Source: a virus
Taxonomy: Duplodnaviria > Heunggongvirae > Uroviricota > Caudoviricetes
IMG/VR virus record: IMGVR_UViG_2698536657_000018
Coordinates: 1 to 9,313 of that record
DNA length: 9,313 nt
Direction: 5' to 3' (one strand)
Shown here: piece by piece, positions 1 to 3,000 of the stretch
Position numbering within the stretch: the first letter of the stretch is position 1
Layout: every line of letters begins with the position of its first letter
Program-made: the position numbers

Positions 1-3000
1 TCACCGCAGCAGCTCTCTGGTGGCGGTAATATCCCGGAGAATATCCCTGTGTTTGTTCAGTTCCCGCAGCGCGGCACAGACTCGCTCCCACTTCTGAACA
101 TCACTTTTCGCCCTGCGCAGCGCCAGGTTTGCCCTGCACAGGGACAGAAAAATCAGCTCATCTGCTTGCGTTTCGGTAAACGATGGCAACGACTGCACAA
201 TGTCCGCCACTGTTTCTGTTTTAATATCTTCCTGTGTTGCAGATTCCTGTACTGGTAACGCAACACCTGCTGGCTGAGGAAAGGCCTTACCATCATTTTC
301 CGTTACCGGCACGGCTTTCGGCTCTGCTGGTAAATTATCGCCCGGCATGCAGTAACGAAATTTACCGTTCTGATTTACGCGTGCCAGGCGTCCCGTTGCG
401 GTTACCACCGCCAACGTGGAAGCAACCTTGCGAATGCTAACACCGAACTTATCCGCCAGTTCCTCACACGTTTTAGCCCCCTCCTGACCGATAAACTCAA
501 TCATCATGTCTGCGGTAACTTTTTGTTCGACCTCCCCGGTCAGCACATCCGGTACTTCAGACTGTTCTGGCTGCTCTTCGGTTACCCCGGATTCACCTTC
601 GCCAGCCAGAAACCAGATGTGACCCGCTTTATCAACAACGCCATTTCTTTTGAGTTCCCACAGTTCGTTGAGAACCTCTTCACGACTGATATCAAGCCGC
701 TCAGCCAGTCCAACAGAGCTGGCTTTTCCCATTGCTTTCAGTGCGTCAAAAACGGTTTCCATTAAAATTTCCTCCTACAAAATCGCTTCTCAGATTCAAA
801 TAAAACCAGCTGCCTTCCGGCGTTCGTATTCCTGTTTCAGCCATTCAATTGGCGTTGGCCCTTTCGGGTGTTTCGCCCCTTCCAGTTGTCGTCTCACTGG
901 CGGAACACTCATCCCGTTACCAACATGCTTTGCCCATTTCGTCAGTTGCCGTTCCGCAAGTCGTTTTAACTCACCCTGCGTCATCTGGCGCTCAATCCCT
1001 CTGGTACGCATTTCGAGGCAGATGTGGTACAGCACAGGCTGTGGCCACGGGTATTTATCACTCCCGTCGTATCGCCAGGATTCATTGCGCCAGCGCCGGT
1101 ACTCTTCCATCACGGCATCCACCGTAAGACCAAATGGATTTGCCCCACTCTCCGAAATCAGCGCAACAAACTCAGCCAGGTCCGGGGGCCACGTTTCACC
1201 CGCCCGGCAGCGGTCCATGCACTGACGACAGACCTGCCGGATTTGCTGTTCAGTCATCGCACCAATCTGGGCAATCCAGAGCTTCGAAGGTGCGGCCCCG
1301 TTCTTCTGAGTCCAGCGGTTCGAATACACCTCCCCCATAAGCTCCCACAGCTTCCAGGCCGTTTCCGTTGCTGATAAATCCGTTGTCACGTTCCCACTGT
1401 TCGCGTGCTGCCCGGATTTCCTGAACTGCCCGTGATGCCGTGCCACCTGATGCTGCATGGCTTACCCCCTTGCTGACTGGTTTTACCTGTGCCCTGACGT
1501 GCTGCACGTGGCGGGCAAATTTCTGCTCCCACTGAACCTGCGTGAAAACCTTCCCCTCCGCCATCCAGTAATCCCGGAATGCGGCAAGCTCAGCAGGTGT
1601 AAATTCCGGCTCAGGCAGAGCCATACCCCACACTGCTGCCCGTTGTCGAAAATCCGACGACGGCTGCCAGACAGTAGTCATCGAAAATTTCCCGATCGGT
1701 TCGCTCAGGCCGTCCAGGTATTCAGGTTCGGCTGTCTGCAACGGCGCACCATGCGACTCACCGGTTGGAGCACTCTCGCGCATGCGCGCGTTATGTGTGG
1801 GGTTTAATTCTGTATCTGTATCTTTATCTGTCGTGACTTGTCGTGACAGATGCGTGACACGTCGTGACTCATCGTGACAATCAGCATCATATTTCCGCAG
1901 CTTTTCGCGCTCCCGCTGCGCTCTCTTGCGCTCTGCCGGGGATTTTGCCGTTTGCGAAACGTTACCATTGTCCTCTTTCAGCACCTGACGTTTTTCCCAT
2001 CCGGAAATAAGGTCACCATCCAGAACCCGCCCCTGCATTGCATGCAAAATTGAATCAATTACGTCTTCCGTCACATCAAGCGCACTTGCTAAATCTTCCG
2101 TCGTGACATCAATGTGACCACGTAGTGACACGCCGTGACATGTCGTGACATTTCGTGACGCGCTCACCAGAAGGTGGATATACACTGCCATCACTGTTGC
2201 GATTGGCTGTCCTGATACCCTGGCAATCGTTCGCCACTTGGGGTCATTTGGCATGTCATGCCACAATCTGAGCCAGGCATTAGCCATACTCACCTCTTCT
2301 GATACCGAACTTTACCCACGAACTTCCGGAAGAAATCCGGTATAAATATTGTTGGTCAATGCACAACAACAGCATTACCAGGCTGACCACCACTGTTAGT
2401 CAGGGTGCCCCAGGCGATCGCCGCTGCGACAAAATCATCCACATCTTTCACCAGCCGATCCCGTCGTTCGACGATCTCCCGGTAATATTCAGAACTGTGA
2501 CTGCGCATACGGGCCACCAGCAAAGGCGGCATCGCCTTTTCGATCGCCGGTAACAGCGCCTGAATTTTTTCAACAGCATCAGGGGTGTCCTTCTCCACCC
2601 AGCGGAAAATTTTCTGGGTATTACGGGCCAGGGCTTCCGGATGGCTGTCGTCATACAGTTCCGGGAACGTCATTCCCAGCTCGAAATACGCTTTGGTAAT
2701 TTTCGCAGCCGGTACTTTTTCGCCGTCCGGATGCGCCCAGACATTCATCGCCATGCGGATGTGTTCATGCTTGATTTTCATGAATCAACTCCCAGCGTGG
2801 GTTGTGTGTTAGCCTGATAGTCAACAGGTATGCCATCGGTTGGGTTGGGGTAAGTACTGCTATCAATCTCGTGCGGGGTCACTACCCACCCTGTTGCTTC
2901 ACACCAGCGTAAAACTTTCCCCCCCGTAAGTTTCGCCCGTCCAGTAATAACATGGCTTACCATCCCTTGGGTTACCCCAACAATTTCAGCAAAATCTTTC

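Follow-up and report, generated by a model that had tools for sequence, protein, structure and literature searches.

A long out-of-frame overlap between the initiator and helicase loader genes of a Rac-like lambdoid prophage is probably a maintained dual-coding region

The 9,313-nucleotide (nt) stretch of DNA analysed here (IMG/VR record IMGVR_UViG_2698536657_000018, positions 1 to 9,313; hereafter the window) comes from a Rac-like lambdoid prophage, of which it is the immunity and replication region. Two genes of its replication module raise a question of reading. The open reading frame (ORF) of a replication initiator (O, 1250–2293, minus strand) and that of a helicase loader (P, 796–1458, minus strand) share 209 nt (1250–1458), and the P frame is shifted by +1 relative to the O frame. 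Are both proteins encoded by this DNA, or is one of the two ORFs drawn too long? A preliminary description of the window had noticed the overlap, with O running to 1250, and the ORF list and the raw sequence confirmed it; genuine overprinting, a frameshift that extended O, and a P start at the ATG at 1255–1257 had all been offered as causes. Our analysis gives good reason to regard the overlap as a genuine, evolutionarily maintained dual-coding region. No description of such an O/P overlap was found in a full-text search of an incomplete literature collection.

The initiator ORF is 347 residues long when read from a GTG codon; its RefSeq homologue starts at ATG 2287 and has 345 residues, and this ATG is the probable start. 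The O stop codon TGA (1250–1252, minus strand) spans P codons 69 and 70 (ACT/GAA). The loader ORF contains 220 residues from the ATG at 1456–1458 (minus strand), the proposed M1. The strong Shine-Dalgarno (SD) sequence reported ahead of this ATG is present: AGGGGG at 1465–1470 (minus strand) lies 6 nt before the codon, within glycine codons of a disordered O linker, and an SD-like sequence plus ATG is kept in most loci. Two further ATG codons in the P frame have been used in annotation. The ATG of M68 (1255–1257, minus strand) is the RefSeq and GenBank start of the E. coli copies, and P has only 153 residues in the RefSeq annotation of an E. coli copy that is 99.3% identical to the window. In the GenBank phage records compared (Rac-SA53, PPompW/Stx2a phages, pPE4 and Chris1), P starts at the equivalent of M68, with an 8-nt overlap, or later. 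The ATG of M41 (1336–1338, minus strand) is implied by homologues of ∼180 residues from other genera, named 'replication protein P' by NCBI. Database homologues of P form length classes of ∼220, 180 (M41), 153 (M68) and 140 residues.

To follow the two frames, we compared the window with 80 related IMG/VR loci and three phage records (83 in total). Eighty of the 83 could be aligned over nt 1100–1700 and, together with the window, they gave 49 distinct sequences. The ATG at 1456–1458 is invariant among these unique close relatives, and the O stop is at the same position in all of them. From 1458 to ∼1380, 10 variable sites fell at third positions of O codons (second in P), five at first positions of O (third in P, mostly singletons) and one at a second position of O (first in P); from ∼1379 to 1250, the corresponding numbers were 3, 17 and 1. 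This switch near nt 1380 is significant (Fisher P = 0.004, 49 unique sequences), so the O frame is constrained over the first ∼80 nt and the P frame over the last ∼130 nt of the overlap. The annotated M68 start lies more than 100 nt inside the stretch over which the P frame is constrained. The overlap can be divided into two segments. In segment A (1380–1458, minus strand), the constrained O frame encodes the helix TASRAVQEIRAAREQWER, and P is a hypervariable disordered leader (residues 1–26/33). In segment B (1250–1379, minus strand), the constrained P frame encodes the beginning of the conserved core and the predicted helices 30–53 and 59–66, and O is a disordered Gly/acidic tail. The region itself is common, with a match in 2558 of 5426 complete E. 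coli genomes.

P is a lambda-P-family helicase loader by its sequence, and loading of DnaB is the predicted function. It matches PF06992 over residues 55–187 (59.3 bits, Pfam cut-off 26) and phrog_109, 'P-like helicase loader', with an E-value of 3e-63. The best PDB match by sequence profile is lambda P (chains 8v9t/8v9s, E 9e-7); Foldseek returned chains Y/Z/V of 9oa1 as the best matches (E 3e-5 to 7e-5, 194–216 aligned columns). In an AlphaFold2 (AF2) model built with the family alignment, residues 1–28 are disordered, with a predicted local distance difference test (pLDDT) score below 50, and are followed by helices 30–53, 59–66 and 70–85. Protein search and alignment placed the beginning of the conserved core, AWxLWxxMGEIYSNRWxxKNGxxPSxLWIAQIG, at A34 (nt 1359), and the P protein of phage phiV10 aligns from residue 17. 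Lambda-P-like sequence therefore begins well upstream of the O stop, as had been suspected. M41 is located inside helix 30–53, 3′ of the conserved A34, W35 and W38, and M68 comes after the second helix (59–66). Two Erwinia genomes carry orphan P-like genes without an initiator, in which the motif is kept as PAWRLWDLM and PVWQLWDTM behind an ATG of their own. These orphans (L109:2426–3052 and L116:2474–3043) adjoin host genes (a ttcA-like gene; a phosphotransferase-system (PTS) transporter gene) and may be prophage remnants or domesticated loaders.

The initiator is of a different family from that suggested by the label 'O-like' in the preliminary description; the label holds for its role, not for homology. 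The only Pfam match (scan at E ≤ 0.01) is the DnaT-like single-stranded DNA (ssDNA)-binding domain PF17948 at residues 203–269 (62.2 bits, cut-off 25), encoded at 1487–1687 on the minus strand and modelled by AF2 with pLDDT of 77–93; no lambda-O family was matched in that scan. It is not DnaT proper either: against the NF002770 equivalog, it scored 94.6 bits (cut-off 201) and matched profile positions 82–156 only. Its PHROG matches are 'replication initiation protein' and 'primosomal protein' families, and its N-terminal part is of replisome-organizer type. Judged by these matches, O is a DnaT-domain replisome organizer rather than a lambda-O homologue. In the AF2 model of the C-terminal 152 residues, the confident DnaT domain is followed by a disordered linker (residues 272–286), one helix (residues 286–303) and a disordered Gly/acidic tail (residues 305–347, pLDDT 37–46). 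Both the SD sequence and the ATG of P fall within the linker. Initiator genes of this type are mosaic. Compared to the window (1800–2293), the N-terminal halves in L001, L002 and L003 are unrelated; such halves are replisome-organizer-like, DUF1376 or helix-turn-helix (HTH) in type, and the linker 'NPTHNAR' is the point at which they join one shared cassette (DnaT domain, tail and P). A homologue search with the C-terminal 152 residues, which served only for alignment and for comparison with Pantoea, returned mostly partial proteins; the Pantoea DnaT-domain proteins end without the tail.

In addition to the close relatives, we scanned one genome per species and obtained 43 loci. The same architecture was found in 35 loci, including the window and three phage records; they cover ∼20 enterobacterial genera (among them Escherichia, Citrobacter, Enterobacter, Klebsiella, Pluralibacter, Phytobacter, Kluyvera, Salmonella, Scandinavium, Pectobacterium, Buttiauxella, Dryocola, Rahnella, Erwinia, Serratia, Samsonia, Limnobaculum and Rouxiella), and identity in P is as low as ∼43%. 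In these 35 loci, the overlaps are 149–227 nt long, and the upstream ORF has 300–390 residues and the same relative frame. One ATG lies 39–50 codons upstream of W49 in all divergent loci. In the great majority of the 35 loci, SD-like GGAGG, GAGG or GGGGG precedes it at normal spacing; L100, L101 and L103 have weak matches. The SD-ATG pair is conserved although the O residues at that place vary. For statistics, the loci were reduced to 23 non-redundant lineages, and in 21 of them the O stop is at P codons 69–75 (codons 57–59 in the other two). Mean pairwise identity in P is ∼0.2 for residues 1–33, 0.55 for residues 34–69 and 0.53 for residues 70–93; W38, W49, K52, N53, G54, P57 and W61 are invariant. 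In O, it is 0.33 for the DnaT domain, 0.36 for residues 280–304 and 0.29 for the tail (residues 305–347). Alignment of both proteins thus gave a P core that begins at A34 and two frames that stay open across ∼20 genera.

A few assemblies depart from this arrangement. In Leclercia adecarboxylata (L115, ∼2500–3150), the P frame is broken and the N-terminal part of P continues in the O frame, which suggests a pseudogene or an assembly indel. P0172 and P0174 are frameshift or deletion fusions.

Is the O frame kept open over P by selection, or by chance? Among the 23 lineages, stop codons in the O frame occur at 2 of 805 codons over P codons 34–68, compared to 162 of 3343 further down P, a depletion of ∼20-fold (Fisher P = 4e-13); in the P frame, there are 0 of 725 in the leader and 175 of 4600 upstream in O (Fisher P = 9e-12), and both P values overstate independence because the lineages share ancestry. 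When P was resampled synonymously, the chance of an O frame as open as observed was 0.12–0.36 per locus, with L117 as an outlier (0.60). Both frames are open beyond chance in the lineages, which makes the overlap more than a coincidence, and both carry signs of selection. For O, these signs are found in the wobble positions of P. At four-fold degenerate P codons preceding AA, GA or AG codons, the wobble base is G in 59 of 77 cases inside the overlap and in 107 of 446 outside, whereas T is found in 1 of 77 and 103 of 446, respectively. Likewise, AAG and AAA are used 20:3 for K52 and 76:116 for lysine outside the overlap. A wobble G in P yields Glu or Gly in O; the alternatives yield Lys, Arg, Gln or a stop. 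The tail of ∼36 residues contains 5–10 Asp and Glu residues (7–10 in 22 of the 23 lineages) and 1–7 Lys and Arg residues (1–4 in 22 of the 23). From codon usage, the O tail appears to be under selection that keeps it open, Gly/acidic and of near-fixed length via the wobble positions of P.

Besides the shared ancestry of the lineages, several observations weigh against dual coding. The tail motif FEPLDxEER is largely forced by the conserved P residues YSNRWxxKNG; it was therefore rejected as independent conservation of O, and only the wobble and stop statistics were taken as evidence for selection on the tail. At conserved P residues, the codons are only marginally more alike inside the overlap (identity 0.43) than elsewhere (0.39), and this difference was not relied on as strong evidence. 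The tails of L103 and L117 are 11–12 codons shorter, so the full length is not indispensable. The AF2 models are of moderate confidence, with mean pLDDT of 70.5 for P and 66.2 for O. The sequence of the P leader is not itself conserved, and some lineages might, strictly speaking, use an unusual start between P residues 1 and 33.

Taken together, overprinting is the best supported of the causes first offered, with both frames open and selected in ∼20 genera, and we consider dual coding in the replication module of this prophage a probable explanation. As inferred from conservation, P would initiate at ATG 1458 from its own SD, placed in the disordered linker of O, the segment of O that tolerates an SD sequence, and the initiator would continue in the other frame to the TGA at 1250 with a full-length tail. 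Over the first ∼80 nt, the helix after the DnaT domain would dictate the sequence, and P would gain a disordered spacer leader of 24–35 residues. Over the last ∼130 nt, the first two P helices would dictate the sequence, and the initiator would gain a disordered tail of ∼43 residues, whose openness, length and Gly/acidic composition may be maintained through P wobble positions. The tail is perhaps functional, for instance as an acidic tail that binds a partner. Two further ideas on the start of P were tried. GTG 1389–1387, a nearer start, was rejected: it is changed by T1388A in 7 of the 49 close relatives and has no equivalent in many divergent loci. Masking of the P ribosome-binding site by RNA structure, which would couple the genes by unfolding, was not supported by folding of 1400–1530 (z = 0.06).

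An extension of this explanation assigns a function to the tail. In it, the acidic tail is an interaction module that could bind a partner or mimic ssDNA and contact the loader or DnaB; it would be encoded through wobble positions in the same P helices that, by analogy with lambda, bind the initiator, and the two surfaces would be inseparable by recombination. It adds that, in the clade with an ATGAnTGA junction, termination and reinitiation at M68 could yield a truncated loader without the initiator-binding helices. We regard this combination as rather unlikely.

A P start at M41 (1336–1338) would reduce the overlap to 89 nt and make the upstream SD-ATG fortuitous. M41 is kept in 22 of the 23 lineages, in some lineages the W38 and E39 codons (TGGGAG) place a weakly SD-like GGAG 3 nt ahead of it, and many 180-residue annotations (Salmonella, Klebsiella, Citrobacter, Pectobacterium) imply it. 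However, the P frame conserves A34, W35, L37 and W38 ahead of M41, at positions where the O residues vary, and the TGG codon of W38 never changes, even at the base that is a third position in O. At E39, pairwise identity averages only 0.49 and Glu is present in 16 of the 23 lineages, and the spacing of the SD-like GGAG is too short. A far stronger SD with an ATG is conserved 24–35 codons upstream of A34 in most loci. M41 lies mid-helix, and the orphan P genes begin upstream of the AWxLW motif. A start at M41 is thus doubtful, with a small share of the probability.

Even less can be said for M68 (1255–1257), where P would be coupled to the O stop via ATGACTGA and the 67 upstream codons would be untranslated. 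This start agrees with the 153-residue P and 8-nt overlap annotated by the Prokaryotic Genome Annotation Pipeline (PGAP) in RefSeq and by the GenBank phage records; the ATGAnTGA junction is found in 11 of the 23 lineages, and the lambda and phiV10 modules have such short junctions. However, residue 68 is Leu, Phe or Cys in 7 of the 23 lineages and in many database homologues, and conservation of P begins at A34, with W38, W49 and KNG invariant. Variation of the synonymous type in the P frame sets in near nt 1380, and conserved P coding lies ∼100 nt further upstream than a translationally coupled short junction at M68 would have it. The Pfam domain, phiV10 P and the lambda P fold matches all reach upstream of M68, and helices 30–53 and 59–66 would be lost. 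We therefore reject the ATG at 1255–1257 as the start of this family; such an origin of the overlap is very improbable.

An equally slim chance is left to programmed frameshifting from O to P, which would make an O-P fusion and turn the open upstream P frame into its shifted part. The switch of the selected frame from O to P near nt 1380 is what such a fusion would produce, and phrog_15931 (482 positions, function unknown) matches O at 1–347 and P at 279–482, as if derived from a fused ORF. However, the ribosome would have to shift by +1 (or −2), the 23 lineages share no conserved slippery heptamer or homopolymer, and RNA structure around the site is not significant (z = 0.06). The conserved SD-ATG accounts for P expression without any shift, and the O frame stays open and compositionally selected past the switch. 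Finally, a sequencing or assembly indel, or a recent frameshift, that artificially extended O over P in the window, to which the greater length of O than of the phiV10 initiator (347 versus 275 residues, a difference of 72) and the frameshifted or fused variants (P0172, P0174, L115) might point, is dismissed by the recurrence of the same O stop in the 49 distinct sequences from 80 related loci, by the matches in the complete E. coli genomes and by the like frame relation and stop position in 21 of the 23 divergent lineages.

If P does start at 1458, annotation has made its gene 40–67 codons too short and has removed the N-terminal helices, in a prophage module that is very common and also found in many Enterobacterales other than E. 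coli. On the evidence of the alignments, the start site of this common prophage gene appears to be systematically misannotated. The dual-coding region also provides a natural example of reciprocal overprinting in two essential, probably interacting, replication proteins, where a structured segment in one frame lies over a disordered one in the other and wobble bias reveals selection on the second frame. It offers single-base handles as well: a change synonymous in P truncates O, and a change synonymous in O removes the start of P.

The rest of the window fits an immunity and replication region. The minus-strand order is an HTH gene, ydaT, the initiator, the loader and a DUF1627 (ydaW-like) gene; the plus strand carries a repressor, a PaaA2/ParE pair, an exonuclease-domain protein and an integrase. 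Inside the initiator gene, GTCACGAC-like repeats form two clusters with ∼10-bp spacing on the minus strand, five copies at 2100–2159 and four at 1830–1878, each a candidate iteron set. The window as a whole contains 15 matches to GTCACGAC-like 8-mers, versus 6.2 expected, and the clusters are probably iterons of the prophage origin. On the plus strand, the PaaA2-type antitoxin (PF21217, 3667–3858) is paired with a ParE toxin (PF05016, 3858–4148) just 3′ of the HTH repressor-like gene (3149–3649), on the far side from the replication genes. The ORF at 5535–8006 (plus strand) codes for 823 residues; its sole recognizable domain is a C-terminal Rv2179c-like 3′-5′ exonuclease (residues 641–813), and the acidic, low-complexity N-terminal 640 residues have no Pfam match. 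A DUF4224 (excisionase-like) gene (8074–8316, plus strand) overlaps by 23 nt the start of the tyrosine integrase ORF (8294–9313, plus strand), which reaches the window end.

Compared to known systems, the module is nearest in make-up to that of phiV10 and epsilon15, in which a DnaT-family initiator (PhiV10p43) and a P-like loader (PhiV10p44) belong to the same families and follow the same order. The DnaT domains of phiV10 and the window are 50% identical over 70 residues and the P proteins 27% (window residues 17–220 to phiV10 residues 25–260). Different from the window, phiV10 has an ordinary 4-nt junction, and its initiator, which has neither the helix nor the acidic tail, ends 22 residues past the DnaT domain. 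The same gene pair with a 4-nt overlap suggests that O was extended over P; most likely, by this analogy, the initiator of a phiV10-type ancestor with an ATGA junction lost its stop and read on into P. The E. coli K-12 Rac prophage has the module at the same position (dicC-ydaT-ydaU-ydaV-ydaW). However, the C-terminus of YdaU is different and YdaV is DnaC-like, the two genes are 6 nt apart without overlap, and the pair was set aside as a comparator uninformative on the overlap.

Like the lambda O-P module, the window has an initiator gene, here with candidate iterons, followed by a P-family DnaB loader; PF06992 and two lambda P structures (8v9t, 9oa1) are among the matches of its P. Different from lambda, the window has an initiator outside the lambda-O family, by the Pfam scan, and a P of low identity to lambda P; in lambda itself, O and P overlap by a few nt only. 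In lambda genetics, the C-terminus of O and the N-terminus of P are the interacting parts, and these are the parts that share DNA in the window; by inference from lambda, the overlap may tie the interacting segments together. Overprinted phage pairs are known from phiX174 (A/B/K, D/E) and lambda (Rz/Rz1), and in overprinted regions the newer frame is typically disordered and compositionally biased. Like those pairs, the two genes in the window overlap out of frame over a long stretch, and selection keeps both frames. Different from the small-in-large arrangement of the phiX174 and Rz type, the overlap here is terminal and reciprocal, between two essential partners, and the disordered end of each protein lies over a structured segment of the other. 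Overprinting is a known phenomenon, and the window adds a new, well-supported case of it.

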